Assembly: GCA_964518475.1 (NCBI GenBank)
Contig: CAZFGR010000001.1
Coordinates: 160,001 to 224,000 of the forward strand
Reading direction: 5' to 3'
Source of the DNA: an uncultured Nitrososphaerota archaeon
GTDB lineage: Archaea > Asgardarchaeota > Njordarchaeia > Njordarchaeales > Njordarchaeaceae
DNA length: 64,000 nucleotides
The translations under genes were made by a program, and so were the position numbers. The notes under the pieces are model-generated. The model saw only the letters and a program-made list of their open reading frames with translations. It searched no databases and was not told the DNA's origin. How positions within the stretch are numbered: position 1 is the first letter of the stretch; every line of letters starts with the position of its first letter. Below are positions 12,036 to 46,177 of this stretch, one piece after another.

Positions 12036-12509
12036 ATGGTAACTAAATCTCCACGTGGTGAATTTGCTGCAAGAGTTTTGCGAAGAAAAAGAAAAAAGCA
12101 GAGATGGGCTGATGTAGAATATAGAAGACGAATGTTGAGGCTTCGAGAAAAATACGATCCCCTAGAGGGCGCTCCTCAAGCAAGCGCCATAGTTTTGGAG
12201 AAAGTGGGTATAGAAGCTAGAAAGCCAACAGGAGCTCTTAGAAAAGCTGTAAGAGTAAAAATAAAGAAAAATGGAAAAATTGTAACAGCTTTCGTGCCTT
12301 ACGATGGAGGATTATTATTCATAGATGAGCACGACGAGGTAATCATTGAGAGGATAGGGGGCAGCCAGGGACGATCAATGGGGGACATGCCCGCGATCAA
12401 ATGATCGCGGGCACCCCAAATCCCAGGAGTTAAGTTCAGAGTCGTCAAAGTAGCTGGCATAGCCCTTAAGGAGTTAGTGACTGGTAGAAAGCGGAAAGAG
12501 AGAAGATAG
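12036..12509 (+). CDS. rps12: 30S ribosomal protein uS12, spliced: join(12036..12386,12420..12509), 146 aa
   Basis: uS12 N-terminal part runs to MGD; after a 33-nt insert the frame continues [29 protein letters not shown]. Confidence 0.95.
12387..12419 (+). other. BHB microintron in rps12 mRNA (33 nt, contains in-frame TGA)
   Basis: GGGG-AC^A-TGCCCGCGATCA-aa-TGATCGCGGGCA-CCCC-AA^A; canonical cuts give GAC ATC (D-I). Confidence 0.92.
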
Positions 12510-12583
12510 TCACTTTCTATATCCACTACTCCGTTTTCAGTGTTTTTCATTAAACACTATTTATTTTTTGTAAGGAAAACGCT

Positions 12584-13624
12584 ATGGAGCCTCTTGCAGA
12601 ATACACTCGCAAAAGAATTTTTAAGATAACCCCTGAAACTGATATCCCATTAATGGGCTGTATCGCTTTTGGTTTGATTGACCGTGGCACTAATCTTATT
12701 CAGGTACGTCCAGTTACTACATGCCCTCTTTCGTGTATTTTTTGTGCAACAGATGCTGGTCCTAGATCCAGAAATAGGCAGACAGAATATATCGTCGAGC
12801 TTGATTATCTTGTTGAGGAATTTAGGAAATTGGTTATGTTTAAGGGTCCAAAAAAGATTGAAGCTCACATAGACACCGTTGGTGACCCATTGACATATCC
12901 CAGAATTGTAGAGCTGGTGCAAGAGCTATCTGAGACTCCAGGAGTTGATGTAATATCTCTTCAAACTCATGGTGTTTTGCTTACCGAGAAGTTAGTGGAT
13001 GAGCTTGATGCTGCTGGGTTATCTAGAATAAATCTCTCAATAGATTCTCTCGACCCCGATTTAGCAAAGTACCTTTCAAATACACCAAGTTATAATCTGG
13101 ACAAGGTATTAGGAATTGCTGAGTATATTGCAAACAGTAGTGGAATAGATCTTTTGATAGCTCCTGTTTGGGTTCCAGGAATTAACGATTCAGAGATCCC
13201 AAAAATTATTGAATTCGCTTTGCGTATTGGGGCTGGAAAACGTTGGCCTCCCCTAGGAATACAGAAATATATACCACATAAAAGAGGCCGTAAACCAAAA
13301 AATGTGAAAGCAATGAGTTGGTCACGTTTTTACAAGCAATTACGGATTTGGGAAAAGAAATATGGTGTAAAGCTAATTTTAAAGCCGGAAGATTTTGGTA
13401 TTCACAGGAGAAAGAGCTTGAAAGCTCCTTTTAAGATTGGTGAAGTAGTTAGAGCGACTGTTGTTGCCCCGGGATGGCTTAAGAACGAGGTAATTGGAAG
13501 AGCTAAGGGATTCTGTATAACGATAGTTAATGCAACTATTGAGGAAATACCTATAGGCACTGATGTTTTTGTTAAGATAGAGAAGACTAAACACAATATT
13601 TTGATTGGTAAGTTAGCTAGATAA
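12584..13624 (+). CDS. Radical SAM protein with C-terminal TRAM-like domain
   Basis: CPLSCIFC CxxxCxxC motif; beta-rich C-terminus (IGTDVFVKIEKTKHNILIG). Confidence 0.9.
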   Translation: MEPLAEYTRKRIFKITPETDIPLMGCIAFGLIDRGTNLIQVRPVTTCPLSCIFCATDAGPRSRNRQTEYIVELDYLVEEFRKLVMFKGPKKIEAHIDTVGDPLTYPRIVELVQELSETPGVDVISLQTHGVLLTEKLVDELDAAGLSRINLSIDSLDPDLAKYLSNTPSYNLDKVLGIAEYIANSSGIDLLIAPVWVPGINDSEIPKIIEFALRIGAGKRWPPLGIQKYIPHKRGRKPKNVKAMSWSRFYKQLRIWEKKYGVKLILKPEDFGIHRRKSLKAPFKIGEVVRATVVAPGWLKNEVIGRAKGFCITIVNATIEEIPIGTDVFVKIEKTKHNILIGKLAR

Positions 13625-14063
13625 TCCGAACGTACTCTACGTCAAAATATTTCGATAGGAAATATCTGGCTCTATACAGTTTATAGCTATTCTTTCCAAG
13701 TGCTTTACCTCGGTCCCATGGAGAAACTTTAACTAATAGAGATTTCCGCCCATTCTTCATAGATCTTGAGAATACGTTCTCTACCTTAGCGGGTTTAAAT
13801 AAGTTCTGAATAAACTTCTCTAAATTCTCTGAATAGACAATAATATCCACTTTTTTCTTAAACTCGTCCGAAAGCATTCTTACAATATCTAGCGTTTTCT
13901 CTCTTATTTTTCTAGCGTCAGCGGGAGTTATTAAAAAAGATATTGTCTCATTCGTCTCATAATAGTCAATAGGTGTGATCCCAGTGAGCGTTGTAAAGAA
14001 TGTGTAGATGAAAATTTTCCGGGGATCATCGAGTTTAAGTTCCTTGTTTGGTTCTTTTCCCAA
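13617..14063 (-). CDS. nusA: Archaeal NusA (two KH domains)
   Basis: FIQNLFKPAKV, DRGKALGKN; follows rpl30e; TTG start after GGGGAGG. Confidence 0.85.
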   Translation of the reverse strand: MGKEPNKELKLDDPRKIFIYTFFTTLTGITPIDYYETNETISFLITPADARKIREKTLDIVRMLSDEFKKKVDIIVYSENLEKFIQNLFKPAKVENVFSRSMKNGRKSLLVKVSPWDRGKALGKNSYKLYRARYFLSKYFDVEYVRII

Positions 14064-14100
14064 TCTCCTCCCCCGATTAATACATAGATGAGAATTATGA

Positions 14101-14472
14101 TTATAGAGTTGGCACCTTGCCCAGTTTGATAATTTCGCTTGTTCCAGGATCAATTACGACTAATGACGAAACTATATGGGGTCGTCTGCATACCTCGCCG
14201 AGTTCTTTAACCGTTCCTGGGAATTTTATATATGGTACATTTGCTAGTGCGCATAGATATTTCAAATATAAGTCTCTCTCCTTAGGTGTGTTAAGAGTCA
14301 CAACCACAGCTTTTGCTTCTCCTCTCTGAAGAGCTCTTACAGTATTTCTGAAACCAAACTTTAATTTCCCAGTATTTAGTACGAGTTGAATTTCCTTGAT
14401 GAGTTTTTCCCTGAATTCTTTTTCTTCTCGCGATAGTTCATAGAACATTGTTTTCATTTGGGTCACCGTCAT
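14101..14472 (-). CDS. rpl30e: 50S ribosomal protein eL30
   Basis: TGKLKFG, ELGEVCRRPH, IDPGTSEI. Confidence 0.93.
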   Translation of the reverse strand: MTVTQMKTMFYELSREEKEFREKLIKEIQLVLNTGKLKFGFRNTVRALQRGEAKAVVVTLNTPKERDLYLKYLCALANVPYIKFPGTVKELGEVCRRPHIVSSLVVIDPGTSEIIKLGKVPTL

Positions 14473-14571
14473 AATTCTTCCGCTAAAATAATGTTCTCAT
14501 TCATGTTGCCTTATAGAGTATTAAAATTATACTGCTAGCTAAGACCCTCTGGGTACTTAGACGTTTCTCTT

Positions 14572-15258
14572 TCATTTTTTCTCTATGCATTCGCGAAAAT
14601 GTTTAAAATTTATCTTCGAAGGCTCAATAATTCTCTCTCTGCATATGATTTCATGAAGCACACTTAAGGCTTTTAATAATCGTTTCATTCTGTTCTTAGT
14701 TCTTTCAAGTAGGTTATTCGCAATGTCTATAATCCTATATAAGTATTCTTTTTCGACTAATAATCCATTAAATTTCGTAGCTACAGGCAAATACATTTTT
14801 TCAGTACTAGTAAAATCCATTATTACGTGCCCTTTATTATGATTGATTGCTCGGATCCCAGAATCCTTAAAACCTAGAAATCTAGCTAATTTAATAAAGA
14901 AAGATGCCCAATCAATACTGCTTACTGCAACAGCTACGATCATACCTTCCAACTTTAGCCACACGATACCTTTTGGTTCGTAATTTTCCAGAATATTCCA
15001 CACAACATCGGGCTTAACTGGTGAGTGCCAACGAGCAACCTTTACACTATCCTTTTTGCTTCCCGTGTAAGGAATATCTATTAGAAGTATTCTTCCAGAA
15101 CACGAAGATGTAGTATATGCAAATGGTAGAAGATTAATCATGTTTAATAAGGGTATAATATCCTCATCTACTTCTCCACGCTCGATAGCTTGCGAGAGTC
15201 TTCTTATGAAAACTTTCTTTCTTTGAATGAACTCTCGCGATATTCTAAAGGTCTCCAT
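14572..15258 (-). CDS. taw3: tRNA wybutosine-pathway methyltransferase Taw3/TYW3
   Basis: GEVDEDIIPLL, YTTSSCSGRI, GFKDSGI. Confidence 0.92.
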   Translation of the reverse strand: METFRISREFIQRKKVFIRRLSQAIERGEVDEDIIPLLNMINLLPFAYTTSSCSGRILLIDIPYTGSKKDSVKVARWHSPVKPDVVWNILENYEPKGIVWLKLEGMIVAVAVSSIDWASFFIKLARFLGFKDSGIRAINHNKGHVIMDFTSTEKMYLPVATKFNGLLVEKEYLYRIIDIANNLLERTKNRMKRLLKALSVLHEIICRERIIEPSKINFKHFRECIEKK

Positions 15259-15349
15259 ACTTACACCAAAAAAGGGAAGAGATAAAAATTCTTTAAGGTT
15301 TTGGAACAATATCTTATTAAAGATTGAGATTTATCGATTAGATTATGGC

Positions 15350-15400
15350 ATGAAGAAGGATCAACCGTCTGAATACAATGATGAACGGTCCACTTTCGGA
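15350..15400 (+). ncRNA. Box C/D guide sRNA
   Basis: C ATGAAGA, 12-nt guide, D' CTGA, C' ATGATGA, 12-nt guide, D CGGA; first guide complements the conserved 16S 5' motif CGGUUGAUCCU. Confidence 0.8.
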
Positions 15401-15405
15401 TTCTT

Positions 15406-18267
15406 CTATCTTTGCCAAAAAACTCTCGTCCTGAAGTACGCAGCTTCTCTCTTACGCAACTCTCTTATTAGCGCTGATCGATCCTCGGCATATCGTTTTA
15501 AAATCTCTATTGCTTGTTTTGGGCCTATTCCCCTAGTTGCTACTGTTATTGCTGTTAATTCTTTATAGGTTTGTAGGAATCTACTTATTTGCTCAGCTAA
15601 TATCAGCTTTTCAACCTCTTTTGCACTTAGCTTCATTTTCTTTTTAAGCTTATCAATTATCATTGGTAACTCTTTTTCATGTTTCTTTGAAACAACAATT
15701 CTCGTTGAATCACACCGCGGACATTTAAGAAGAACATCTGAAACTGGTCTAATCTCTTTATAACCACATGATAAGCAAAGATAGAGAACTTCTTTTCTTA
15801 AGAGCCTCTCCTCATATTTTCTGATGACTAGTTTATCTAGGTCCCTAACAATCACCTGTGGCGTTACTGGTAGGGCCATACCGAGAGGTGAGAGACCACG
15901 TACAAACCAAATATTTATTTGCCCCTCATCAATTTTAAGGAGCATTTCTCTCGTGTGTTTGAGATCTAGATTGTAAAAAATATACTCATGAACAGCCTCT
16001 GCAAAAACCGGTGTGTCAATGTACTCACTTAGTATTCTCGCTAATTTCGTTTTAGATAAGTAAGTCTCGCTTTTTACGAGCCCAAACCGTTTCAAAACTT
16101 GAAGAAAATACCACATTACCTCGTTAAGCTTATTTTCTCTGACTATCTCTATCAGAAATTTCTTCAACGATGTTAGATCCCTAGCATAGTCTATTAAGGT
16201 ATTGAACGCTTCTTCTAAAGCTGTTATAAGAAAATCCTCGCGTAAGTAGAATGTTCGGTAAAGAAAGAATTGAATACGATAAGCGTCACTGTCAAACTCG
16301 GTCATGGGAAAGTTAGGATTCTCGGATAATAATGCAGCTAATAAAATAGCGAGTGTCCTATTTATGTTCGTACCGAAAGGAGAATGAATAATTACTATTC
16401 CCTTAATTTCGTCGATCTCTACTACAATGTTTTTATCGTCCGGAATCGGTCGATCCTTCGGATAACTTTCAGCAATTCCTTTTAACCATTTTTTAGCAAC
16501 GGGAGAGAAGTAACTCTCTTTCAAAGTCTCTTCAAAATTTATCCTCCAAGTTTTTCTGATCTTACCAACTTCTTGCGCCACCTCAAACGAGACAGGAAGG
16601 AGCTCCCCTGTCCACTTAGGCGGAACGGCTTCAATATTGGCAGGAGAGACGAAAACAGCTTTTTTCTCAGCATTAATCTCAAGTACTTCTCTAGGAATAC
16701 CAGCTAAAAGGAAGTGATCTCCTACTTCAGTTTCCAATACGAATTTCTCATCTACTTCTCCAATCTTTCTTCCTTCCTCAATATCAATGACGTCATATTT
16801 CAAAACGGAGGGGATTGTTGAAACATTCTCAAAATAATAACTTAATGCACCTTTTCTGAGAATTATCCGTCCTCGCTCTCTAATAATTAACCTACAGCGT
16901 TGTTCTAAGAAGTTTAGTACCCATTTGAAATCTTCTATTGAAAGCTCTCTAAATGGGTATGCTCTTTTTATTACCTGGTAAACCTCCGATTCTCTCGGAT
17001 AAACTCCTCGATCTAAATATTTTTCCCGTACAATTCCGATTATCTGATGAGCCAGCACGTCATAACTTACGTCTATTACTTTTAAAGGCTCTAATATCCC
17101 CTTCTTGATTAGTCTAGCAATAGCCAACGATTCATATAGATCATCAATTGTCGAAGCTATTATAACTCCCCGAGTTATTAACGATATTCTATGACCAGAT
17201 CGCCCTATTCGCTGAAGCGCTGTCTCAACACGTCGCGGACTCATTACCTGAATTACTAATCCTATCTCTCCAATATCTATTCCAAGCTCCAACGAGGATG
17301 TAGCTATGACACATTTGAGATTTCCTTCTCTGAAATCTCGTTCAATTCCCACTCTTAATTCTCTACTTAGAGAGCTATGATGAATAGCAAAAGGGAAGCG
17401 TGCATATTTCTTCATATAAAGCCCAAGTAGTTCTGCTAGATCTCTTGTATTTGTGAAAACCAGTACCTTACCCCTTTCTTTATCTACGTACTCAACAATT
17501 TTTCGAGCTATCTCGGCCACATTGACTCTTATTCCGAGACCGAAAATATTGGGCGCAGGGGATAACTCTGGTTTTACAGCATCTATTTTCAAATGAATTT
17601 TTTTATATTCCTTTGTTTCAATTATTTTTCCGCCTCTACCTCCCGTGATAAACTCCAATACTTCTCGAGGATTTTGTACAGTCGCGCTGAGGGCGATTAT
17701 TGATAGATCCCGTTGTGCTAATTCCCTCAGTCTCTCTAAACCCACAGCTAATTGGCAACCTCTCTTATTATCAACAAGAGCATGTACTTCATCTATTATA
17801 ACCCAGCGAACATTTTTCAGATATGATCTAATTCTCTTTCCACATAGAATAGATTGGAAAGATTCTGGTGTTGTGATAAGAATTTGAGGAGGTTTTTTTG
17901 CCTGCCTACTTTTCGCTGACTTGGGAGTATCGCTGTGTCTGACTTCAATAGTTATGCCTAAGGCATTTCCGATCTCAACTAATCTCTTGAAAATATCCCT
18001 ATTAAGCGATCGGAGAGGAGTTATGTAAAGTACTAAGATTCCCTTCTCTTTTATCCCTTCCTTACTCAGTAGTATGTGTAAGATAGGAAAAATTGCAGCT
18101 TCGGTCTTTCCAGCGCCAGTGGGGGCGATGAGTAGAAAATTGCCTCGAGGATTCCTAAGTATCTCTGGTATTGCTAATTCTTGTATTTTTGTCGGTTTTT
18201 TGTATCCAAATTTTCTTAGTATACTTTTCAACCTCTCGTCTAACAAGTCAAATACTTGCCTCTCCAC
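15406..18267 (-). CDS. lhr: Lhr-family SF2 helicase with C-terminal Zn ribbon
   Basis: APTGAGKT, DEVH, SAT, ATSSLELGIDIG, QRIGRSGH; C-terminal CxxC...CxxC. Confidence 0.93.
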   Translation of the reverse strand: MERQVFDLLDERLKSILRKFGYKKPTKIQELAIPEILRNPRGNFLLIAPTGAGKTEAAIFPILHILLSKEGIKEKGILVLYITPLRSLNRDIFKRLVEIGNALGITIEVRHSDTPKSAKSRQAKKPPQILITTPESFQSILCGKRIRSYLKNVRWVIIDEVHALVDNKRGCQLAVGLERLRELAQRDLSIIALSATVQNPREVLEFITGGRGGKIIETKEYKKIHLKIDAVKPELSPAPNIFGLGIRVNVAEIARKIVEYVDKERGKVLVFTNTRDLAELLGLYMKKYARFPFAIHHSSLSRELRVGIERDFREGNLKCVIATSSLELGIDIGEIGLVIQVMSPRRVETALQRIGRSGHRISLITRGVIIASTIDDLYESLAIARLIKKGILEPLKVIDVSYDVLAHQIIGIVREKYLDRGVYPRESEVYQVIKRAYPFRELSIEDFKWVLNFLEQRCRLIIRERGRIILRKGALSYYFENVSTIPSVLKYDVIDIEEGRKIGEVDEKFVLETEVGDHFLLAGIPREVLEINAEKKAVFVSPANIEAVPPKWTGELLPVSFEVAQEVGKIRKTWRINFEETLKESYFSPVAKKWLKGIAESYPKDRPIPDDKNIVVEIDEIKGIVIIHSPFGTNINRTLAILLAALLSENPNFPMTEFDSDAYRIQFFLYRTFYLREDFLITALEEAFNTLIDYARDLTSLKKFLIEIVRENKLNEVMWYFLQVLKRFGLVKSETYLSKTKLARILSEYIDTPVFAEAVHEYIFYNLDLKHTREMLLKIDEGQINIWFVRGLSPLGMALPVTPQVIVRDLDKLVIRKYEERLLRKEVLYLCLSCGYKEIRPVSDVLLKCPRCDSTRIVVSKKHEKELPMIIDKLKKKMKLSAKEVEKLILAEQISRFLQTYKELTAITVATRGIGPKQAIEILKRYAEDRSALIRELRKREAAYFRTRVFWQR

Positions 18268-18692
18268 TATTTTGCCTCCTCATAGATTTCCTGCAGAAGC
18301 GCTTCTGCAAAATTTCCTAACGTATTTATTAGAACCTTATCACTCAGAATACTTTGCACTATTCTCTTTATTCTCTCTGGCGACTCTCTAAGCACGTCCT
18401 CTACAACATCTCTTTCATCGAAAGGCAATAAGTTGAGACATTCTCTACTTAATTTATAAATCTCCAAAAAGCTCTGTAATATGATTTCCTTCTTCCCCTC
18501 TCTACAAGCTTCCGACAGTTTACTAAGCATATATCTTAGTTTAAGCATGTATTCTGGAGGGATCCGTTCATCATCAAGAACACTTTCTAAGACAAAAGAT
18601 ATAGCGTCTAGAAGTTCTAAGAAAAGTTGTTGAGTTTTTCTCAATATATCTTCCCTCCTGAGCCTCTGGGGAGAACTCAGAGCTGGTGCCAT
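18267..18692 (-). CDS. Hypothetical helical protein
   Basis: 141-aa ORF whose stop abuts the lhr start. Confidence 0.65.
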   Translation of the reverse strand: MAPALSSPQRLRREDILRKTQQLFLELLDAISFVLESVLDDERIPPEYMLKLRYMLSKLSEACREGKKEIILQSFLEIYKLSRECLNLLPFDERDVVEDVLRESPERIKRIVQSILSDKVLINTLGNFAEALLQEIYEEAK

Positions 18693-18751
18693 TCTTCATT
18701 TTTCAGTCGAAACACTCCCTCTTCATCGTTCTCTTCCCCGGCGTTGGATCG

Positions 18752-18802
18752 TCAGGCGGCCCATCAGCTCATCACGAAATCAGTAGCGCTGGGATTCATC
18801 AT
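18752..18802 (-). ncRNA. Box C/D guide sRNA
   Basis: Minus strand ATGATGA-ATCCCAGCGCTA-CTGA-tttc-GTGATGA-GCTGATGGGCCGC-CTGA; all four boxes canonical; D guide complements the 16S motif GCGGCCCAUCAG. Confidence 0.9.
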
Positions 18803-18886
18803 CTTGTTACTGCTGGATAACAAAATTAGTACCTGTTCTTAAAAAATAAGTTGGTTTATTCTGTAAGGGACCAAATCATAATTCAG

Positions 18887-19438
18887 TTAGTGATATATAA
18901 TAAAATCTTTTTTCTTAAAATTGCTTTTACCCGCCACCGCTAAGAAAACCATGAAAGCCTGTAAAAAATGCGCAATTCCCGCTTTTCCTTTGAAATTAAA
19001 CCACCACGCTCTAAAAACCGGTGGCATACAAAAAGGTTTATAATTAGTCCACTTTCGAAGCATCATTATGAATTCTCTATCCCATCTAGGATCTCCTATT
19101 GTGGGAGGATGTTTAGGATAACTTATTGGGACGTTTATTGTTACTGTTAACCAGTATTCTCGTCCCATATTAAAGAGTTCACCAACATTAACATCTACAA
19201 GGAATCTTTGCGGATTATTCTTTGCGATACGGAGATTCTTGAAAGGTACATTAGCATTGAATAATCTCCATGTTTCGAATACTCTAATTTCTTCCTTGAC
19301 TCTGTCGAGCCATTTATTTGTACGTGGAGAAGCTATTATTTGAAGCGATGGGATATCTGTATAGAAATTCCACACGAGAGGAATACCACGAGCTTTTTTC
19401 TGCCTTAAGACGATCTTTAGAGACGGGAGGTCTTTCAA
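18887..19438 (-). CDS. UFC1-like (UFM1-conjugating-type) E2 enzyme
   Basis: [11 protein letters not shown]...[31 protein letters not shown]...GIAHFL are collinear with UFC1 motifs; Cys at the catalytic position. Confidence 0.75.
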   Translation of the reverse strand: [183 protein letters not shown]

Positions 19439-22115: not shown

Positions 22116-22159
22116 GAATTGTTGAATGTTAAATTCCAAATGATTAGTTGGTGAAGTAG

Positions 22160-32734: not shown

Positions 32735-33021
32735 GATCCACCTTACCCAAAACACTAAATTAGTTACTTAAATTACAATTTCGAAAAGCTTGAGAAAAAT
32801 ACATAAAAAAAGATTATGTTATATATTCTAAAAATAAGGATAAGAATACGGGAAAAATTCTTTAATGAAAAGTTGTTTTGTTAAAAAGAATGAACTGAAA
32901 TTATTCTTAAATGATTGAGCAGACAAGTTACCAGAAAACAAGCATAAAATTTAAAAGACAATCAGAAGGACGTGTAGTATATATTTTAGAAGAGTATGGG
33001 CCGGTAGCTCAGCCCGGGTAG

Positions 33022-33040
33022 ACCGAGCTATCGGGCTCAT
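33022..33040 (+). other. tRNA intron at non-canonical position 22/23 (19 nt)
   Basis: GGGT-AG^A-CCGA-gcta-TCGG-GCTC-AT^A; central helix has two G.U pairs. Confidence 0.8.
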
Positions 33041-33055
33041 AGCGTCCGGCTCTTA

Positions 33056-33091
33056 AACCCACCAGAGTATTACTCTGGTGGGTCTAGAGAA
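33056..33091 (+). other. tRNA intron at canonical position 37/38 (36 nt)
   Basis: CTCT-TA^A-ACCCACCAGAGT-att-ACTCTGGTGGGT-ct-AGAG-AA^A; relaxed BHB. Confidence 0.9.
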
Positions 33092-33230
33092 ACCGGATGG
33101 TCGCGGGTTCAAATCCCGCCCGGCCCGCCAAAACGCTTCTTTAAGTATGTTCTTATCTCCTCCTATTGTCTATCCCTACTCCCCAAAGCACTCTCTACAC
33201 TCTACTTTTGTGCATAGTATAGGTTATGTT

Positions 33231-34098: not shown

Positions 34099-36102
34099 AT
34101 GAGATCATCCAAAGATGAGAAAAAAGAGAAAGAAGAAGTTATTTCAGAGGAAGAGTTGATTGAGTCATTACTATCAGGAGTAAGATTAGCTGAAAAGGAA
34201 CGCATAGAGAATAAAGATGCTATTGTGATAAAAGCGGATGCCATAGAAATCGAGGAAGGCTTCACTCCTAAGATCCCAGGGGAGGAGATAATCTCATTCG
34301 ATCAAGTCTTTCATGAAAAAATGAATAAAATAACCGATGAGATTGGCCAAACACTTCAAACGTTTCAAAAAGATTTCAAAGACATGCTACGCTCTCAGTT
34401 AATGGATTTACGTTCTGCTCTTAGACAATTAGGAGCTGATATTGCAAGATCTTTTGCTGAAAAACTACGACTACGATTTACGGAACGTCATCTTAAAAAA
34501 TTGTACCAAGATGTTACTGAACGTGTACTATCTGGAAGGGAAAGGGAAATATTTACATCTCTTATTAACTCTGTGAAACCCCTCTATGCTAAATTAAACG
34601 ACCGCTTAAAAACTCTTCAGAGAGATCTATATGACATCAAGAGATTATACGAGGAGTGGATCTTTGGATACACTTCTCTACTTTCTGAAGAGATAAGACG
34701 ATCAAAAGAAGAGATAGATGAGCTCGTAGAAAGACAGAGAGAGTTATTAAGTGAGATAGAGCACTGGAAGAATAAAGTTACAGAACTTGAAAAGTTGCTT
34801 AGAGAAAAAGAAGCTGAAATAGAACAATTAAGGAAGGCCACTCACATAGCGCCTCCCCAAGAATTATCAGAGTTACAAGAGACTATAAAGAATCTCAAAG
34901 TAAAGATTGCTGAAAGAGAGAAAATAATCTCCGATCTGCGTAATGAGCTAGAAAAAGTCAAGCGCGAATACGATTCTGTTCTTAAAAACCTAGAAACAAA
35001 AATAAAGTTGTTAGAGAAAGCTAGAGACCTATTGAAAACGCAGACACGGCTATTCTACGAGAGAACTCAGGAGTTGAAAAAAGAAATTGCCAAACGTGAC
35101 AATGAGATAAAGCAACTCCGAGAAAAAATAGAGACGTTGATCAGTAGAGAATATGCCAAGAAACTGCAGGATAGAATAAGAGAACTTGAAGAAGAACTTA
35201 ACAAAAAGGAAGAAGAGATTAGGAAGCTTAGCGAGAAACTCATAAAGATCAAAGAAGAAACAGTTCCATTAGAGGATTATAATGAATTAAAAGCTGAGTA
35301 TGACGAGCTAAAGAAAAGGTATGAAGAATCCATGGAGAAGCTTCATGAAAAAGAACTAAGAATAAAAGAATTAGAAGGAAGATTAAAAACACTTCAAGAA
35401 GAACTGGGTGGTTTAGAAGAATTAAGTAAGATAAAAGAAACCTATGAACATCAACTTCGTGAAAAGGAAGCCAAAATAAGAGAGCTGGAAGGAAAACTAG
35501 CGGAACTCCAAAATGTTAGACAGTTATTAGAAAGTTGGTTTAGCGAGTTAAAGGGGCTAAGAGAAGTTGGTAAAGTCGTCGAAGAAGAAGCTATGAGAGA
35601 AGAAATGCGGTTAAGATACGATGAGGTATTATCTGAGATAAGAAGAGAGTTCTCAGAACTCCATGAGGAACTATCTCAAAAATCTAAAGAAATAGCTAGA
35701 TTAAGAGCAGATAATAAAGCTCTCCAAGAGCAAATCAATGTATTAAAGTCGCAAATAGAAGAGGCAAAGAAGAGAGAAGAAGAACTTGTTAAGGAATTAG
35801 AGGAGTATAGGACTAAAGCATTAAGATTGGAGAGTGAAAATAACCAATTAAAAGCTAAACTAGCTGAACTAGAAAATAATGTGAAGGATTCTACTAAAGC
35901 ATTAGAAGAGCTGAAAAAAATTCTAGAGAAGACTCTTATCGGAAAGGCTTTCCTTATAATCAGGGACTTAAAGTCGATTCCCCTAGACTCCCTAGCAGCC
36001 ACACTAGGCGTAAATAAATTACAACTCCAGAGGGAGCTCTTAAAACTTGTTAGAGAAGGACTATTAAAGATTGAAGGCGATAGAGTCACTTATAGCGGAT
36101 AA
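34099..36102 (+). CDS. Long coiled-coil protein with C-terminal winged helix
   Basis: About 500 aa of E/K/L heptads; LAATLGVNKLQLQRELLKLVREGLLKI. Confidence 0.8.
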   Translation: MRSSKDEKKEKEEVISEEELIESLLSGVRLAEKERIENKDAIVIKADAIEIEEGFTPKIPGEEIISFDQVFHEKMNKITDEIGQTLQTFQKDFKDMLRSQLMDLRSALRQLGADIARSFAEKLRLRFTERHLKKLYQDVTERVLSGREREIFTSLINSVKPLYAKLNDRLKTLQRDLYDIKRLYEEWIFGYTSLLSEEIRRSKEEIDELVERQRELLSEIEHWKNKVTELEKLLREKEAEIEQLRKATHIAPPQELSELQETIKNLKVKIAEREKIISDLRNELEKVKREYDSVLKNLETKIKLLEKARDLLKTQTRLFYERTQELKKEIAKRDNEIKQLREKIETLISREYAKKLQDRIRELEEELNKKEEEIRKLSEKLIKIKEETVPLEDYNELKAEYDELKKRYEESMEKLHEKELRIKELEGRLKTLQEELGGLEELSKIKETYEHQLREKEAKIRELEGKLAELQNVRQLLESWFSELKGLREVGKVVEEEAMREEMRLRYDEVLSEIRREFSELHEELSQKSKEIARLRADNKALQEQINVLKSQIEEAKKREEELVKELEEYRTKALRLESENNQLKAKLAELENNVKDSTKALEELKKILEKTLIGKAFLIIRDLKSIPLDSLAATLGVNKLQLQRELLKLVREGLLKIEGDRVTYSG

Positions 36103-38528: not shown

Positions 38529-39952
38529 AAAAATTAAGCTTTGTCAAATTAGTGTTTATCTTAGCCATTGTTTTTTCTACGTATCCTATTCTAGCTGGTT
38601 ACTTTAACCTAATGGTCGGTTCTGCTCAATTTTCAATACTAAATGATGGAGAGAATGGGTTATCCTTGCTAAGGAGAGAGTTGGAAAATTCTGGGTTTAA
38701 GACGAAGATAATAGTGTCTTCATTGAATATTCTCAGAAGAATAAACGAAAGTTCTGTTCTAGTTATTATAGCTCCTACATTATCTTTCACAATCGAGGAA
38801 GCGATAACAATATTAGACTTCCTCATGCGTGGAAATGGTGTTTTGATAGTTGATGATTTCTCGAAAGCAAATTCTCTTCTCCAACATGTATGGACAATAA
38901 TAAGTCTCTCACAAAAGTTCCTACAAGGGACTCAAGATGTCATTTTTGAGGGCATATTCTTTAATACCACAGCCACATTGGTAGATGCAGGAAGCTTCTA
39001 TAAAACACCAACGAATCCCGTGATCACAAACTTTAATGATTTTTATGGAATACTTTCCCCTACCGTGAAAAAGATCGTGACATCATTTCCTTCCATTCTC
39101 TCATTAAGAATTAAGATACGCCATGGAAATCAATGGATCTCGATAACTACTCCGCTTCCAGGATTTATAGGATTACTATCAAGTACTGAATATAGTTGGC
39201 TAGAAACTAACTTAACTTCAGCGATAAATGGAGAAATGACACCAGATCCTTGGGAATGGGGAGGTATCCCCTTTTCCTTAGGTATAGCAGTAGAGTTACC
39301 ATCCATGGGTAGATTAGTGCTGATATCTGATCCTGATATCTTTTCAAATAAACTTTTAGAACTGCAAGAGTTTGATAACGCCGATTTCTCCACCAGCATT
39401 ATTAGATGGCTCGCGAAGGATCAACCTGCTCTCGTGTTATTTGATGAAAGCCATCTCTCTCACGCAATATATGATCCATTGTATGGATTTTCACTCGTAT
39501 ACAAAGCCGTTATTTTTCTCTCATATTCATGGCTTGTAGCCCCCGCTGTTCCTTTATCTATAATCTCTACGCTTTTAGCTTATGTTCCTCGTAGAACTAG
39601 ATTTAGACCAAGGATAATGAGTAGAGTAGAGAGATTGCTGGGTTCTCCATGGCTGGAAAGCAGAATTTCCTGGTATAAACGTTCCCGCAACTATAGACAT
39701 ATGGCATCAGTGCTGTTAAGTTCGATTCTATTTGATATTAAAAGGCTCTATGGTATATGGAGTGAAAGGCTGGATGATGTTCTTGATGAATTATTTGCTT
39801 ATCATCCCGAGATTGCAAAGTATGCATCAGATATTAAGGAAACTCTTCAAACTCTTGATGAAATATCACATGGTAAGCAAAAAATAAATGAGGAAAAACT
39901 CACTGTTCTTGTTGAGAAAGTAAAACAAATTAGAACAATTCTGAGGAGATAA
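38525..39952 (+). CDS. DUF4350-like membrane protein of MoxR locus
   Basis: FSILNDGENGLS, GRLVLISDPDIFSN, LFDESH. Confidence 0.75.
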   Translation: MKKLSFVKLVFILAIVFSTYPILAGYFNLMVGSAQFSILNDGENGLSLLRRELENSGFKTKIIVSSLNILRRINESSVLVIIAPTLSFTIEEAITILDFLMRGNGVLIVDDFSKANSLLQHVWTIISLSQKFLQGTQDVIFEGIFFNTTATLVDAGSFYKTPTNPVITNFNDFYGILSPTVKKIVTSFPSILSLRIKIRHGNQWISITTPLPGFIGLLSSTEYSWLETNLTSAINGEMTPDPWEWGGIPFSLGIAVELPSMGRLVLISDPDIFSNKLLELQEFDNADFSTSIIRWLAKDQPALVLFDESHLSHAIYDPLYGFSLVYKAVIFLSYSWLVAPAVPLSIISTLLAYVPRRTRFRPRIMSRVERLLGSPWLESRISWYKRSRNYRHMASVLLSSILFDIKRLYGIWSERLDDVLDELFAYHPEIAKYASDIKETLQTLDEISHGKQKINEEKLTVLVEKVKQIRTILRR

Positions 39953-39955
39953 TCT

Positions 39956-40945
39956 ATGGAAGATAGTCGAGTAGAAAGCATAATTGGAACAGAGGAAGAC
40001 ATAGATGTTAGTCTTGTTAGGGATACATGGATAAGAATCAAAGATGAGCTTAAGAAGGCCGTAATAGGAATGGACGATGTCATAGAATTTATGTTCATAG
40101 CTCTCTTATCAGAGGGTCATGTTCTTCTAGAAGGACCTCCTGGAATAGCTAAAACATACGCTGCACAAAACTTCTCAGCCACTTTAGGACTAGATTTTAG
40201 ACGAGTTCAAATGACTCCTGATTTATTACCGTCAGATATTATAGGAACTATGATTTATGATCAAAAAGAGGCTACGTTCAAATTTAAGCGAGGTCCAATC
40301 TTTACGAATGTATTACTGGTTGATGAGATAAATAGAGCGCCCCCAAAAACTCAGGCAGCCCTCTTAGAGGCTATGGAGGAAAAACAGGTAACAGTAGAGG
40401 GTGTTACATATCCGTTGCCTAAGCCATTCATTGTTTTAGCAACGCAGAACCCTATAGAGATGGAAGGAACTTATCCATTACCTGAAGCACAAGTCAGCAG
40501 ATTTATGCTTTATCTCAAGCTTAGTTACCCAGACTCTGAAACAGAACTCGAAATAATAAAGCTTAAGCACCGTACTATGAAGCGCGTTCTCGTAGAACAA
40601 GTAACAAGTGAAAAAACCATTTTGCTATTACAAAGGATTGTTCAACAAAGAATCCATGTTTCAGAGAGTGTAATGAGATATATAAGGGACATAGTTATTG
40701 CTTGTCGCAAGGATGCTAGGGTACTACTTGGCTGTTCCCCTAGAGCATCAATAGCTCTCTTGTTGGCCTCTAAAGCCTATGCAGCAATGCAAGGTCGTGA
40801 CTATGTTATCCCAGATGATGTTAAATATGTTGCTCTTCCAGCATTAAGACATAGAATAATCCTAAAGCCTGAGATAGAGTTAAGTGGTGTTACGACTGAC
40901 AATGTAGTACTTTCAATCTTACGATCTATAAGTATTCCCGAATAA
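39956..40945 (+). CDS. moxR: MoxR-family AAA+ ATPase
   Basis: GHVLLEGPPGIAKT, TPDLLPSD, DEINRAPPKTQAALLEAM, ATQNPIE. Confidence 0.97.
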   Translation: MEDSRVESIIGTEEDIDVSLVRDTWIRIKDELKKAVIGMDDVIEFMFIALLSEGHVLLEGPPGIAKTYAAQNFSATLGLDFRRVQMTPDLLPSDIIGTMIYDQKEATFKFKRGPIFTNVLLVDEINRAPPKTQAALLEAMEEKQVTVEGVTYPLPKPFIVLATQNPIEMEGTYPLPEAQVSRFMLYLKLSYPDSETELEIIKLKHRTMKRVLVEQVTSEKTILLLQRIVQQRIHVSESVMRYIRDIVIACRKDARVLLGCSPRASIALLLASKAYAAMQGRDYVIPDDVKYVALPALRHRIILKPEIELSGVTTDNVVLSILRSISIPE

Positions 40946-40957
40946 GGTGAAAAGTTC

Positions 40958-42361
40958 TTGTTGACTAAGAGAGGAGGCTTATTACTCTTACTAGGTGCAT
41001 CCTCAGAGCTTCTTGCACTATCCTTCTATGGTTTAAAAGACTTTCATGCATTTATTCTCCAGACACTTCATTTTGATTTGAAGACATTCGTGCCAAATAT
41101 CGATTCGATGATACTTATCTCACCTTTCCTACTAATACTAGGCAGTATGATTCTATCTAGTGTCCTTTTTTCTTATATATCGTTTAGTAAGACAGCTAAA
41201 ATAGAAAGCATCGAGATAGAGAGAAAGATTTCTGATCAAAGAAGATTTGCAGGTGATCTCGTCTTAGTTGAACTAACAATTAGAAACAAAACTATGTTTT
41301 GGATTAGCAACTTGTTTATCAGCGATATTGTCCCCGATACATTTGATATAGTATTTGGAGAAAATTACGCATCACTCACACTTCCTCCTAGGGGAGAGGT
41401 TACATTTTCCTATGTCCTTCGTTGCGGCACTAGGGGTGTCTACTATATTGGACCTTTGCAAGTTGTGTTTCAGGATAAGGTATCCCTATTCATGAAAGAA
41501 CATCTCGTAGAAAATAAAACGGAGATCATTGTTTATCCTTCGTATGAAGATGTTAGGAGATTTGAATTTCTCCAAAAGATGTATGGGGGATTACTATTTG
41601 GACGATACAGAGTGCGAGAGAAGGGCCATGGATACGATTTTTGGGGCTTAAGGAAGTATCAAATAGGGGATAGTCTAAAATTCGTTGATTGGAAGACAAC
41701 AGCAAAAAAAGGAGAGTTATACGTAAAAGAATATGAAAGCGAGAAGAATGTAAAGATGTATATTTTCATAGATTGTGGCCTAAGCATGGGCGTGGGTTCT
41801 AAAAGATTTACCAAGCTTGACTATGCAACAAGAGCTGCTATCTTACTTGCTTATATAGCTAATCGAGGACAAGATTTCTTTGGCCTTGTCGCTTATTCAG
41901 ATAAATTAATAGACTTTTTGCCAGCTCGTAGAGGAAGACGCCATTTTTATAACCTACTAGATAAAATGGCTAGACTTGAACCGAGAGGAGTTTCTAACCT
42001 CCAAATAGCCATGCGAGAATTCATTCTTAGAGAACCCAGATTTTCATTAGCAGTGATAATATCGGACCTTGAAGGAGACCCTTCAAACATAGAGGAGGGC
42101 ATTAGAATAGCCTTAGCTCACAAAGTTTACCCTATAATAATAGCCCCCATAGGTCCTCTTTTTGAACGCTTATATGGAGATAAATACACAGAAGCTCTAA
42201 AGGAAATTGCTTTAGCCGAATACATGAAACAGCGCTATGAAATAAAAGAAAAATTAGCTAAATATGGAGTTTTTGTCATAGATGTAGGACCAGAAGATAT
42301 CTTGGCCGCGACACTAGAGGTATTTCTGAGGGCAAAAGGTAGAAGTATTGCTATTGTGTAG
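40958..42361 (+). CDS. DUF58 / vWA-domain protein
   Basis: RGVY, LRKYQIGD, VDWK, DCGLSM, IISD. Confidence 0.9.
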   Translation: MLTKRGGLLLLLGASSELLALSFYGLKDFHAFILQTLHFDLKTFVPNIDSMILISPFLLILGSMILSSVLFSYISFSKTAKIESIEIERKISDQRRFAGDLVLVELTIRNKTMFWISNLFISDIVPDTFDIVFGENYASLTLPPRGEVTFSYVLRCGTRGVYYIGPLQVVFQDKVSLFMKEHLVENKTEIIVYPSYEDVRRFEFLQKMYGGLLFGRYRVREKGHGYDFWGLRKYQIGDSLKFVDWKTTAKKGELYVKEYESEKNVKMYIFIDCGLSMGVGSKRFTKLDYATRAAILLAYIANRGQDFFGLVAYSDKLIDFLPARRGRRHFYNLLDKMARLEPRGVSNLQIAMREFILREPRFSLAVIISDLEGDPSNIEEGIRIALAHKVYPIIIAPIGPLFERLYGDKYTEALKEIALAEYMKQRYEIKEKLAKYGVFVIDVGPEDILAATLEVFLRAKGRSIAIV

Positions 42362-42376
42362 GAGGAGACGCAATAT

Positions 42377-43579
42377 ATGAGTATACTATCTCCTTTAACC
42401 GAAAGACTTCGCAAAGAAAGAAAGATTCTCTTTGCATTCGTAATTTTAATAAAGGCAATTCTCTTTTTCGGTGGTTTATATCTGGTTTATTTATTTCTTA
42501 ACGTGTTAAATATTGGTTTTGAGCCATTGCTTTTTTTGCTTCAATTCTTTCAGACATTGAAAATGTATCTAATTCTTATCTTGCTATACTTAATTACGTT
42601 CGTGGTATACCTTCTCTCACCTAATGCTGACTTTACAAAATTATTCTTTAGCACTCTACTGGCTTACTTCATAACAATTTTTAATACCCAGCCATCAACG
42701 GACTTACTCACTAATCCAGCTCTTCTACTTGAGTTTATATTGCAGCATTACTTAGAAATGTTAGAAGCAACAGTACTCATACTTATCATACTTGCCACTC
42801 TCACGATAATAGGATTCTCAAGAACATTAAGATATGAAAAGCTACTCAATGCTTGCTTATTAGTGCTTTTTGCATACATTTTAGGAGTTATGTTCACTCC
42901 AACTCTTTCGTTAGAGGAATTCCCTTACACCTCTATTCAATCTGTATTCTCCTTAGAAGGAATAACAACTTTACTAAGTCTAAGAGAAATAATCTTTATC
43001 CTTTACTTCTTCATCTATGTAGAACTATCTGCCCATTTAGCCTACGCTGCTCAACAATTGAACGCTATTGCCGAAAAACATAAGAGAATCTCTAGGCAAT
43101 TAACGCGCATACAAAAGGAATCTAGTAAGGGAGCGAAAATAGAGATATCTCTTCCTCAAAATTTCACCGAAATCCTAAGCCCCTTAGCTACTACGATACT
43201 ACGGGATGCTTATGAAGGATACGCCTTTCTAGGCGAGGGTACATCGCTGTATGTTACCTCAAAAGTAATTGGATACATAGAGGAGATGTCAAAGAAACGA
43301 CCAGAGATCATTCCTCAAATAACGGGTCGAAAACTAGTATCCTCTACTTTACGCTTCCTTGGATACGTTCTTCTACCATCCCTTATTCTAAGAATATTCT
43401 TCGGAATATTTGTGATTATCAGCAGCTTCCTCGTAGCGGCTCAAATTATAGCGCGTCTTGCTAGCGGATATATCTTTGAAAGTACACTTATTCAATCATT
43501 TGTGTATGCGACCCTAGCTGTGATGTCTCTAGCTTATATAATCTCCACATTACCATCTGTCATTAGTAAAAGGAAGTAA
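42377..43579 (+). CDS. Polytopic membrane protein
   Basis: Multiple TM segments; last gene of the MoxR cluster. Confidence 0.75.
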   Translation: MSILSPLTERLRKERKILFAFVILIKAILFFGGLYLVYLFLNVLNIGFEPLLFLLQFFQTLKMYLILILLYLITFVVYLLSPNADFTKLFFSTLLAYFITIFNTQPSTDLLTNPALLLEFILQHYLEMLEATVLILIILATLTIIGFSRTLRYEKLLNACLLVLFAYILGVMFTPTLSLEEFPYTSIQSVFSLEGITTLLSLREIIFILYFFIYVELSAHLAYAAQQLNAIAEKHKRISRQLTRIQKESSKGAKIEISLPQNFTEILSPLATTILRDAYEGYAFLGEGTSLYVTSKVIGYIEEMSKKRPEIIPQITGRKLVSSTLRFLGYVLLPSLILRIFFGIFVIISSFLVAAQIIARLASGYIFESTLIQSFVYATLAVMSLAYIISTLPSVISKRK

Positions 43580-43684
43580 TTCAGGCACCGAGTGGAGCCG
43601 TTGATTACTACATTATTCGGAAATTTTTTATGATGATATCGACCGATGTTTCCATAAGCTAGGTGCTCTTAAATTGGTGAAGAA

Positions 43685-44602
43685 GTGATGTTAGATGTTA
43701 CAGCAATAGGTAATCCCGTATATGACATAATAATAACACCATATATAAGGACTAATGGACGTGTACTATCTGGCTGTAGCACGAACTCCGCCTTAGCTAT
43801 CGGAAAACTTAGTGGTAAAGCGAGCATCGTAGGTAGAATAGGCAATGATTATTTGCCTGATTTTACACACGTTGCAGCAAGATATAACGTAAAGGTATAT
43901 CCGATTATTTCAGAAGAGACTGGCGGTTTCTATCTGAGATACTTTGATGAGACAATGAATGATAGGGAGTTAAGAATCTTAGGAATCGCCGGAAAAATAT
44001 ATTTCAAAGACGTACCACCCGAAGCATTAAACGCTAGAGCTATAATCCTTGGCCCAATCCTAAAAGAAATAGACCTGGAGTTTGTTAAAGAGCTAACTAG
44101 GGAGACTGACGTTCCCATCCTCGTGGATCCTCAGGGATTAATAAGAGAAATTAGAGAGAACAGAATTGTCAGAATAGCCAATGATGATGTGTATGAAATA
44201 ATTAAATTAACTCATATAACAAAACCAAACGAGCACGAAGCAGAAGTACTATTTCCCAATATGGAGCCGGCGAAAATAGCTAAGAAGATTTATCTGTTAA
44301 ATAAATTCGCTGGAATCGTCACTTTAGCGGAGAAAGGATCAATTATAGCTTTCGACAAGGGAGTGTATCATATACCTGCGTATAGAACTATTGAAAGAGA
44401 CCCAACGGGTTGCGGAGACGTATACGCGGGTGCTTTCATGTACTATTATCTCAAAAACGAAGATCTTTTAGAAGCAGGCGTTTTTGCATCAGCAGCAGCA
44501 TCTTTTATGGTAGAAACTACGGGGCCTCATTTTAGATTGGAATTAGGAGAAGTTATTAAACGTTTTGAAGTGCTAATCGAGAAAGTCAGGAGGATAGAGT
44601 GA
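43685..44602 (+). CDS. PfkB/ribokinase-family kinase
   Basis: VDPQG, KPNEHE, DPTGCGDVYAGAF. Confidence 0.92.
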   Translation: MMLDVTAIGNPVYDIIITPYIRTNGRVLSGCSTNSALAIGKLSGKASIVGRIGNDYLPDFTHVAARYNVKVYPIISEETGGFYLRYFDETMNDRELRILGIAGKIYFKDVPPEALNARAIILGPILKEIDLEFVKELTRETDVPILVDPQGLIREIRENRIVRIANDDVYEIIKLTHITKPNEHEAEVLFPNMEPAKIAKKIYLLNKFAGIVTLAEKGSIIAFDKGVYHIPAYRTIERDPTGCGDVYAGAFMYYYLKNEDLLEAGVFASAAASFMVETTGPHFRLELGEVIKRFEVLIEKVRRIE

Positions 44603-45198
44603 TGACTCGATTACGGGAATGGTATGAGAGAACTACTCTCCCTCTTGGACGAGCACTAGCGAAACTTCATATTACTCCGAATCAGATTACAATCTTATCA
44701 ATTCTAGTTGGTCTATTTCCTCTCTATTTCTTATGGCAGAGAAGAATCCTTCTCGGTCTCGCGACTCTATTACTTGCAGTTTTTATGGATATTCTAGATG
44801 GATCCTTAGCAAGAGCAACAGGAAAAGTGAGCGAATTTGGACAAATACTTGACCACTTCGCCGATAGAACGGTTGAGTTTGAGATAGTCCTTGGTTTAAT
44901 CCTTGGAGGCTATGTAACTGGATGGTTGGGAACACTAATGTATTTTACTATGATAATGCCCAGCTACATAAGAGCAAGAGGAGAAGCGGTATCGGGTATA
45001 TCAGCACAGGGTGTTGGATTATTCGAGAGAAAAGAGAAAATTTCTTCCATAGTCTTTGGTCTAATTCTGGAAAAATACTTACCAGGCACTTTCTACTACG
45101 TAGCTCTGGTCATCTCTGTATTATCCTTCATTACATCAATTCAGAGATTAATGTATTTCAGACGGAACTTAAGAGAGAAAAAAACTTGTTCCCAATGA
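44599..45198 (+). CDS. CDP-alcohol phosphatidyltransferase (archaetidylinositol phosphate synthase-like)
   Basis: TPNQIT, DILDGSLAR...FGQILDHFADR, SYIRARGE, GLFERKE. Confidence 0.9.
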   Translation: MMTRLREWYERTTLPLGRALAKLHITPNQITILSILVGLFPLYFLWQRRILLGLATLLLAVFMDILDGSLARATGKVSEFGQILDHFADRTVEFEIVLGLILGGYVTGWLGTLMYFTMIMPSYIRARGEAVSGISAQGVGLFERKEKISSIVFGLILEKYLPGTFYYVALVISVLSFITSIQRLMYFRRNLREKKTCSQ

Positions 45199-45386
45199 TG
45201 TTAACTATTATCACTTTTCCTATAAAATCTGAGATGTGTCTTAAGATAGAAAACTAAAGGTTTTTTATGAGATGTCTGCTTAATATGCCTGACGAAAAAC
45301 TGTAAATAATTAAAAAATAATAAAAAATGAGAACAGAAACTTATCATCCAATTCGTTAATATACTAATGCAGCGACTGCAAAACTC

Positions 45387-46177
45387 TTACTTCTTTCTGC
45401 GTCCCGTTCTCCTAGGAGCAATAGCTCCAACTTTTCTGCCAGGTGGTGCATGTCGCGAGACACTCTTGGGCTTGCCAGGGCTCTGATCTCGCCCGCCTCC
45501 AAAGGGGTGGTCACAGGCACTGATGGGACGGGAGCCCCCACGAGTGTGTAGTGGGACTCCCGTCCTTTCATCGCCACTCCTCTGGTTCTTGGCCATTTGT
45601 GTGCTTTTACTCTCCATTTGTGGTAGGCGTTGCCTGCTTTTACTAGTGGTAGTTCGTCTTTTCCTGTTCCGGCTACTATTCCTATTTGTGCTCTGCTGTT
45701 CCAGTTTATCCTTATTATTCTTTTTCCGGGGAGTTCTAGTTCTGTTTGTTCTAGGTGCGCGTGGTGGGCTCTTATTATTGCGTATGTTCCTGCTGCTCTT
45801 GCTATTTTTCCTCCATCGCCTGGTCTTATCTCTATGTTATATACGGGTGTTCCTTCTGGAATCTTTCTTAGTGGTAGCGCGTTCCCTATATCGATTTCCG
45901 CATTCTCTCCGATTTGAATCTCCTTCCCCGTGTATAATCCTTCTGGAGCTATTAGCCAGATTTTTTCTATCACTCCATTGGCTCTTACAAACTTCACTAA
46001 TGCTAGTGGGGCATACCTTCCGGGTTCCTTATACAATTTAAGCACTGTGCCTCTGGCAACATCTTTCATAGCTTCTGGCCAGTCTGGGATTTTTACATCC
46101 GCTACTCTTATTCCTGGAGGAGCTCTGTATACTGATGTTCCTCTCCCTACCCTTTGAGCTCTTATGCGCTTACCCAT
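45387..46177 (-). CDS. rpl2: 50S ribosomal protein uL2, spliced: complement(join(45387..45519,45567..46177)), 247 aa
   Basis: MGKRIRAQR...WPRTRGVAM in one frame and DHPFGGG...PPGRKVG...RRTGRRKK in another; removing 47 nt gives [15 protein letters not shown]. Confidence 0.95.
45520..45566 (-). other. BHB microintron in rpl2 mRNA (47 nt, frameshifting)
   Basis: Minus strand ggc-GATG-AA^A-GGACGGGAGTCCCAC...GTGGGGGCTCCCGTCC-CATC-AG^T-gcc; strict hBHBh'. Confidence 0.95.

Follow-up and report, generated by a model that had tools for sequence, protein, structure and literature searches.

The intron in the cbf5 pre-mRNA of Crenarchaeota was reportedly the subject of work by Watanabe in 2002 and by Yoshinari in 2006. 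It belongs to the bulge-helix-bulge (BHB) introns (Yokobori 2009, PMC2738675), and a 2025 paper in Nucleic Acids Research on these enzymes cites only three cbf5 papers for pre-mRNA. In the literature found, cbf5 is the only archaeal gene with a BHB intron in its coding region; this coverage is incomplete, and a prior report of another case is possible. The papers on tRNA introns of Asgard archaea do not mention mRNA introns. Asgard archaea possess an (alpha-beta)2 splicing endonuclease (EndA) with an L1 loop, and only such enzymes cut relaxed motifs (PMC5829648). This report concerns a 64,000-nucleotide stretch of archaeal DNA, called the window, in which a short insert breaks the gene of each of two ribosomal proteins, uS12 and uL2. 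The inserts are very probably archaeal BHB introns, removed by splicing endonuclease and followed by ligation of the exons.

The window is positions 160001 to 224000 of contig C1 and has a G+C content of about 37%. The genome under study (G000) is a metagenome-assembled genome (MAG) of the Njordarchaeia (Asgard/Promethearchaeati), with 2.33 Mb in 121 contigs, 91% completeness, and 5.8% contamination. Among public records, MAGs labeled Candidatus Njordarchaeota are nearest, at 96% and 86% identity over uL2, along with one labeled "Promethearchaeati archaeon". The organism occurs in hydrothermal sediments. Six congeners (G001 to G006) were used for comparison, together with metagenome contigs from JGI and ENA and other families of the order.

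Structure of the interrupted genes

The uS12 and uL2 genes have the following parts, with positions given in the window.

12036..12386, forward strand: uS12 exon 1, 117 codons, ending in GRSMGD (PF00164, E 2.4e-26, profile 2-81)
12387..12419, forward strand: putative uS12 BHB intron of 33 nt; a TGA at 12402-04 is in frame
12420..12509, forward strand: uS12 exon 2, 29 codons and TAG (PF00164, profile 82-110)
45567..46177, reverse strand: uL2 exon 1, 203 codons and the AA of an Asn codon (PF03947, E 1.2e-30)
45520..45566, reverse strand: putative uL2 BHB intron, 47 nt, frameshifting
45387..45519, reverse strand: uL2 exon 2, the T of the Asn codon, 43 codons, and TAA

Removal of the inserts restores both proteins to the nucleotide. 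The unspliced uS12 open reading frame (12036..12404, forward) has 122 codons and ends at the TGA, which lies inside a perfect palindrome. Excision of the 33 nt at 12387-12419 gives a uS12 of 146 aa with the motif GD-IPGV rebuilt (a hyphen marks the junction), and the PF00164 coordinates of the two exons are contiguous (2-81, then 82-110). The unspliced uL2 frame from 46177 on the reverse strand enters a non-homologous tail, and the true C-terminus lies in another frame. Excision of the 47 nt at 45566-45520 gives a uL2 of 247 aa with GVAMN-ACDHPFGGG rebuilt, the conserved Asn codon being assembled across the junction from AA and T.

Both inserts have the topology of a pre-tRNA BHB: one central-helix strand, a 3-nt bulge, an inner hairpin, the other central-helix strand, and a second 3-nt bulge. 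The uL2 insert is a strict hBHBh' motif. Its outer helix is GGC/GCC (45575-73 with 45518-16), its central helix is GATG/CATC (45572-69 with 45525-22), and its inner hairpin (45565-45526) has a 13-bp stem and three further pairs. The bulges are AAA at 45568-66 and AGT at 45521-19, each cut after the second base (AA-A and AG-T). The uS12 insert has the central helix GGGG (12381-84) with CCCC (12414-17), the bulges ACA at 12385-87 (AC-A) and AAA at 12418-20 (AA-A), also cut after the second base, and an inner hairpin at 12388-12413 with an 11-bp stem. In G000 the 5' bulge, central helix, and inner helix of uS12 are strict, and the outer helix is one G.U pair, making this a relaxed motif. A preliminary description of this DNA had proposed hairpin inserts with a 4-bp helix and two 3-nt bulges in these two genes, and had stated that a cut past the second bulge base rebuilds the protein motif; both points are confirmed here.

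A tRNA gene in the same window provides an internal positive control, and its introns share the BHB geometry of the uS12 and uL2 inserts.

32998..33130, forward strand: tRNA-Lys(CTT) with two BHB introns (Rfam tRNA, 44 bits; ARAGORN on the spliced form)
33022-33040, forward strand: tRNA-Lys intron 1, in the D arm, 19 nt
33056-33091, forward strand: tRNA-Lys intron 2, at position 37/38, 36 nt

The unspliced gene is miscalled as Asn(att) by ARAGORN. With both introns removed at the BHB positions, the program recovers a canonical tRNA-Lys(CTT), in agreement with the earlier proposal of a tRNA with two such introns.

Conservation of the inserts among relatives

The inserts occur at the same sites in some congeners and are absent from others, as a comparison suggested in the preliminary description makes clear. 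For uS12, an insert of 33 nt is found in G000, G002, and G001 and one of 34 nt in G006; of two metagenome contigs with the insert, one has 33 nt and the other 34 nt. G003, G004, G005, and the remaining families of the order have no insert in this gene. The uL2 insert is present in G002, where it is identical to that of G000, in G004 (47 nt, with a different inner stem), and in G005 (53 nt, with an AT-richer stem of about 16 bp). It is absent from G001, G003, the metagenome relative L066, and the other families. All of the lengths, 33 and 34 nt in uS12 and 47 and 53 nt in uL2 (both 2 mod 3), restore the reading frame. A further candidate was set aside: the ENA contig k141_396595 (L104) encodes a uS12 of 124 aa, in which a G run is one base shorter at the GD codons and there is no intron.

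The elements held constant are those of the BHB. In an alignment of the six homologous uS12 introns the central helix GGGG/CCCC is invariant in all six, and the inner stem has double-sided changes at 6 of its 11 pairs. Altogether 96.1% of cells are paired, compared with 33-51% when the partners are slid; with few related sequences, these counts are descriptive rather than a probability. In uL2 the GATG/CATC helix and the bulges are kept in all intron-bearing genomes despite three different inner stems.

Synonymous exon sites that form the central and outer helices track the presence of the intron. All 6 intron-bearing uS12 genes use GGG for the Gly just ahead of the intron, and all 5 of the inspected genes that lack it use GGA, GGT, or GGC. 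The Val-Ala codons before the uL2 intron are GTG GCG in all intron-bearing genomes, and GTT or GTA followed by GCA in intron-less congeners.

These features bear on a rival reading in which the RNA stays unspliced and the ribosome hops across the hairpin in the manner of T4 gene 60. Programmed bypassing of this kind would fit the short gaps, the stable hairpin at their start, and the stop inside the uS12 gap. In G006 and in the metagenome relative L105 the insert also starts with a repeat of the beginning of exon 2 (ATACC...), a loose likeness to take-off and landing sites. However, matched take-off and landing codons are absent from uL2 and from the uS12 gene of G000, and the stop does not directly follow the take-off point. 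Hopping cannot rebuild the uL2 Asn codon, which is split AA/T across the gap. The conserved features are instead those of a BHB, namely the 4-bp helix, the two 3-nt bulges, and helix-tuned synonymous sites in the exons, and the same geometry is found in the tRNA of the window. Bypassing is thus very unlikely.

Selection on the exons and copy number

The sequences downstream of the inserts evolve as protein-coding exons in the spliced frame. Codon differences in uL2 exon 2 were counted among intron-bearing genomes in the spliced frame and in the two other frames, with these results for the spliced frame.

G000 and G002: 9 synonymous, 0 non-synonymous
G000 and G004: 20 synonymous, 4 non-synonymous
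G004 and G005: 20 synonymous, 5 non-synonymous

In the other two frames the differences are nearly all non-synonymous. Since purifying selection is seen only in the spliced frame, uL2 exon 2 appears to be translated in a frame that can be reached solely by removal of the insert. In uS12 exon 1 the protein is 100% identical at 83% nucleotide identity.

The preliminary description had pointed to intact intron-free copies as evidence against splicing, and none were found in G000, which has one match to PF00164 and one to PF03947; every relative searched also has one match each. Each intron is single copy in the genome by a repeat-family test. The interrupted genes could nevertheless be pseudogenes or silent copies, with the functional copies in parts of the genome that were not assembled. 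The MAG is in 121 contigs and 91% complete, and the unspliced reading frames of uS12 and uL2 are defective, both of which would be expected in that case. Against it stand the single matches in G000 and its relatives, the strong purifying selection on the exons on either side of the inserts (for example 9 synonymous to 0 non-synonymous differences in uL2 exon 2 between G000 and G002), the identical uS12 exon 1 protein, and the compensatory changes that maintain the structure of the inserts. Pseudogenes or silent copies are therefore an extremely unlikely explanation.

The inserts are also present in independent DNA. A 151-nt unitig of the independent DNA run X2 spans the uL2 intron with 0 differences, and it carries G000-specific variants (relative to G002) on both flanks of the intron. 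Inserts that differ between lineages recur in independently assembled MAGs and in JGI and ENA contigs of other samples. Two observations could raise suspicion of a chimeric join during assembly or of an insertion induced by the hairpin: in X1, the DNA run in which this locus is best represented, contigs end on either side of the uL2 intron and none crosses it, and the G000 uL2 gene is a mosaic of G002-like and G004-like stretches. The X2 unitig and the recurrence in other assemblies speak against an assembly or sequencing artefact, to which a practically negligible likelihood is given.

Public protein sets contain misread forms of both proteins. From the organism of G000 they list a uS12 cut short at 122 aa and a uL2 that reads through to 273 aa, and from sister lineages truncated forms of uS12, which agrees with the earlier expectation that annotation pipelines would be misled. 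A search of protein collections for the full-length 146-aa uS12 at 95% identity or more did not find it, and intron-bearing lineages were represented only by truncated forms of 121-137 aa.

Enzymes for cleavage and ligation

The genome encodes the enzymes expected for BHB splicing, and the preliminary description's call to identify the endA type and rtcB can be answered with an alpha/beta-type EndA and an RtcB. Two EndA paralogs are encoded in G000, the alpha subunit at C1:372297-372944 and the putative beta subunit at C26:10217-10828, both on the reverse strand. The 215-aa alpha paralog has as its best match the Aeropyrum pernix catalytic subunit (3P1Z_B, E 6e-50), with further matches to 3AJV_B, 2CV8, and 2ZYZ_B among the catalytic alpha subunits of crenarchaeal heterotetramers, and its alignment covers the N-terminal loop region corresponding to the crenarchaeal/Asgard L1 loop. 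The 203-aa paralog is more distant; read by eye, its sequence lacks the catalytic His, suggesting that it is the structural beta subunit. RtcB is encoded with a score of 500 bits and appears to be split by an assembly break between the end of contig C18 and the start of C5. There is a second, partial RtcB-like stretch at C55:1173-1589, which matches profile positions 47-183 and contains two TAA stops.

The inserts might be removed from RNA by another route, such as self-cleavage or a different nuclease and ligase pair, the role of EndA at these sites being a prediction. An Rfam scan of the window, however, gave a tRNA match only, with no ribozyme or group I or group II intron, and inserts of 33-47 nt are too short for these. 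The conserved features are EndA recognition elements, and the cuts implied by the proteins are the canonical sites. Removal by another route is accordingly given only a slight chance.

Search for further introns

The intron class in this genome appears to be small and restricted to translation genes. Both strands of the 2.33-Mb genome were scanned for strict BHB motifs, giving 1873 matches with a six-pair inner helix, which were ranked by G-C pairs in that helix. The top three are uL2, EF-1alpha, and uS12, each in the sense orientation of its gene. Most of the remaining strong matches are tRNA bodies. The additional candidate, which joins the tRNA-Lys introns as an internal positive control, is as follows.

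C1:93853-93883: predicted EF-1alpha BHB intron, 31 nt, junction RD-MGQ, with an exon 2 of 17 codons

The scans thus give three candidate mRNA introns in 2.33 Mb. Each interrupts a translation gene, and contig C1 carries every one of them. The preliminary description had extrapolated from two cases in 64 kb to more across the genome. With EF-1alpha as the single further case, that expectation holds only modestly, and the total is three rather than dozens. Its other proposal, that introns lacking a reading frame have spread into highly conserved codons, would take in all three genes (GD-IP in uS12, AMN-A in uL2, RD-MG in EF-1alpha). The cbf5 gene is uninterrupted in G000; it is one open frame of 340 aa at C11:12928-13266, with TruB_N at 2-149.

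Additional scans that started from strong hairpins or from weaker motifs, with filters based on joining of reading frames and on a codon model, gave no further convincing case; introns with weak inner helices would escape these scans. Matches from the relaxed scan were mostly gene boundaries with ribosome-binding sites. Two joins, DUF1512 with HisRS and an unknown protein with a PyrK-like protein, are separate neighboring genes by Pfam. A cation-efflux (CDF) gene at C4:77720-78435 has a 20-nt BHB-like element, and it also has a frameshift in an A run and an in-frame TAA, marking it as a pseudogene or a sequence error. Two candidates in the window were rejected: 34823-34860 (reverse) is antisense to a coiled-coil gene, and 58687-58720 (forward) lies inside the intact start of adenylate kinase. 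A further possible candidate is at C22:12707-12727, a BHB-like element of 21 nt that includes an in-frame TAG and separates open frames of 96 and 195 codons in an orphan gene; this gene has no Pfam match and no homolog in the genus.

Splicing as the probable explanation

The evidence is best accounted for by splicing of the uS12 and uL2 pre-mRNAs. The pre-mRNA would fold into a BHB, and the heterotetrameric (alpha-beta)2 EndA would cleave each 3-nt bulge past its second base. RtcB would then join the exons, and the intron would probably be circularized. Full-length uS12 and uL2 would be encoded by the spliced mRNA only. The preliminary description had proposed that this lineage needs EndA and RtcB for housekeeping mRNAs, and single gene copies, the encoded enzymes, conserved introns, and selection in the spliced frame support such a requirement.

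Several points weigh against splicing. A mirror-topology control gives about two strong-hairpin BHB-like matches per genome. A reversed-sequence control re-finds the complements of true motifs, so that it is not independent and gives only a rough background. Given a motif background of about two per genome, it is the precise rebuilding of the proteins and the comparisons among relatives that carry the weight. The 3' bulge of uS12 in G000 has no proper closing helix and needs an enzyme of broad specificity (relaxed HBh'-type). Folding of the BHB would face competition from transcription coupled to translation, a problem that is the same for cbf5. The incompleteness of the MAG makes an intron-less second copy conceivable. 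A search of sequencing runs listed no RNA run carrying the locus, and splicing is inferred from DNA.

Gain, loss, and possible recombination

The three introns have a patchy distribution within the genus. Their presence at the EF-1alpha, uS12, and uL2 sites is listed by genome.

G000: EF-1alpha present, uS12 present, uL2 present
G002: EF-1alpha present, uS12 present, uL2 present
G001: EF-1alpha present, uS12 present, uL2 absent
G006: EF-1alpha absent, uS12 present, uL2 not found
G004: EF-1alpha absent, uS12 absent, uL2 present
G005: EF-1alpha gene fragmented, uS12 absent, uL2 present
G003: EF-1alpha broken at the site, uS12 absent, uL2 absent
Other families of the order: EF-1alpha absent, uS12 absent, uL2 absent

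The EF-1alpha C-termini of G004 and G006 are near-identical, yet the two genomes differ in the uS12 intron. This contrast and the patchy matrix require several gains or losses, or lateral replacement.

The sequence around the uL2 intron also has a mosaic history. About 20% of the nucleotides of uL2 exon 1 differ between G000 and G002. Within a 110-nt tract, however, at 45468-45577 on the reverse strand (uL2 gene positions 600-709), the two genomes are identical, and differences resume beyond it. Exon 1 contributes 12 nt to the tract and exon 2 contributes 51 nt, with the 47-nt intron in between. The favored reading is gene conversion of a short tract that includes the intron; the flanks may instead be under strong structural constraint. 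Compared with G004, uL2 exon 1 of G000 is 87% identical over its last 251 nt, with windows of 92-97% near the 3' end, and 72% identical over its first 360 nt. In the G000 gene, G002-like and G004-like stretches form a mosaic, as if by recombination, and the 3' third of exon 1 is G004-like. Both the 110-nt tract and the patchy distribution suggest that introns were recently gained, lost, or laterally replaced through homologous recombination.

Codon usage differs along uL2 exon 1. In the last 82 codons (45569-45814, reverse) the third position is A in 55, C in 19, G in 8, and T in 0, and the first 121 codons have 20 with T. G004 has T at the third position in 1 of 203 codons, and G002 has many.

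It is possible, though doubtful, that BHB mini-introns without a reading frame are an actively mobile class of element in Njordarchaeia. They would pass laterally between co-occurring lineages by conversion of short tracts and come to rest in translation genes at their most conserved codons, and EndA and RtcB would then act as an essential mRNA-splicing system in an Asgard-affiliated lineage.

The EF-1alpha gene of G003, a genome that is 66% complete, has a different anomaly (L092, G003:C39, locus at about 2100). Homology is lost exactly at RD, and the frame ends 10 codons later. Neither the adjoining 1.5 kb nor a search with a degenerate pattern yielded an exon 2. The break could mean that the gene is split, that it carries a long insertion, or that the contig is misassembled.

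Gene order around the two ribosomal protein genes is unusual in part. A uS7-like frame, assigned by eye, lies at 11218-11922 on the reverse strand, upstream of uS12 (which begins at 12036, forward), so that the genes are divergent and not in the order uS12 then uS7. In the metagenome relative L105, uS7 comes after uS12. The uL2 gene is separate from the usual uL3-uL4-uL23-uL2-uS19 string.

Implications

Intron-bearing ribosomal protein genes have consequences for cell physiology and for genome analysis. On the genomic evidence EndA and RtcB would be essential for making ribosomes, beyond their role in tRNAs. If the mini-introns are indeed mobile, these enzymes could control how much ribosomal protein and elongation factor is made. 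The coupling of ribosome supply to tRNA-splicing capacity put forward in the preliminary description is at this stage speculation. Competition between splicing and coupled translation is a question raised by the same genes. Congeners with and without the introns form a natural system for the study of intron gain, loss, and transfer in relatives of eukaryotes. Gene callers give wrong proteins for universal markers, and the errors enter phylogenomic marker sets and completeness estimates.

Comparison with known systems

The putative uS12 and uL2 introns extend the known class of BHB pre-mRNA introns to ribosomal protein genes of an Asgard-affiliated lineage. Like the cbf5 intron, they are short BHB introns without a reading frame in coding sequence, they occur with a hetero-oligomeric EndA, and their gains and losses are patchy. 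They differ in their hosts, which are uS12, uL2, and EF-1alpha, in the Njordarchaeia lineage, and in affecting at least three essential translation genes in one genome. Splicing of cbf5 has been experimentally demonstrated, whereas the uS12 and uL2 cases are known here from DNA alone. The tRNA introns of Thermoproteales and Asgard archaea (PMC5829648; PMC11291895; bioRxiv 10.64898/2026.10.13.758758) share the motif, the cut positions, the (alpha-beta)2 EndA with L1 loop, and the range of lengths. In contrast to these, the substrate here is a translated mRNA, and excision must restore the frame to the nucleotide.

Two systems outside this class have partial similarity. In eukaryotes, HAC1/XBP1 is likewise a case of non-spliceosomal mRNA splicing, with endonucleolytic cuts in the loops of a small structured element and, in metazoa, an RtcB-type ligase. 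Its nuclease is Ire1 rather than a tRNA endonuclease, it serves a regulated stress response, and its RNA motif is non-homologous. T4 gene 60 has a hairpin-containing coding gap of about 50 nt in an essential gene. Unlike that gap, the inserts described here lack matching codons for take-off and landing; a codon is reassembled from both sides of the interruption, and the BHB geometry is conserved.

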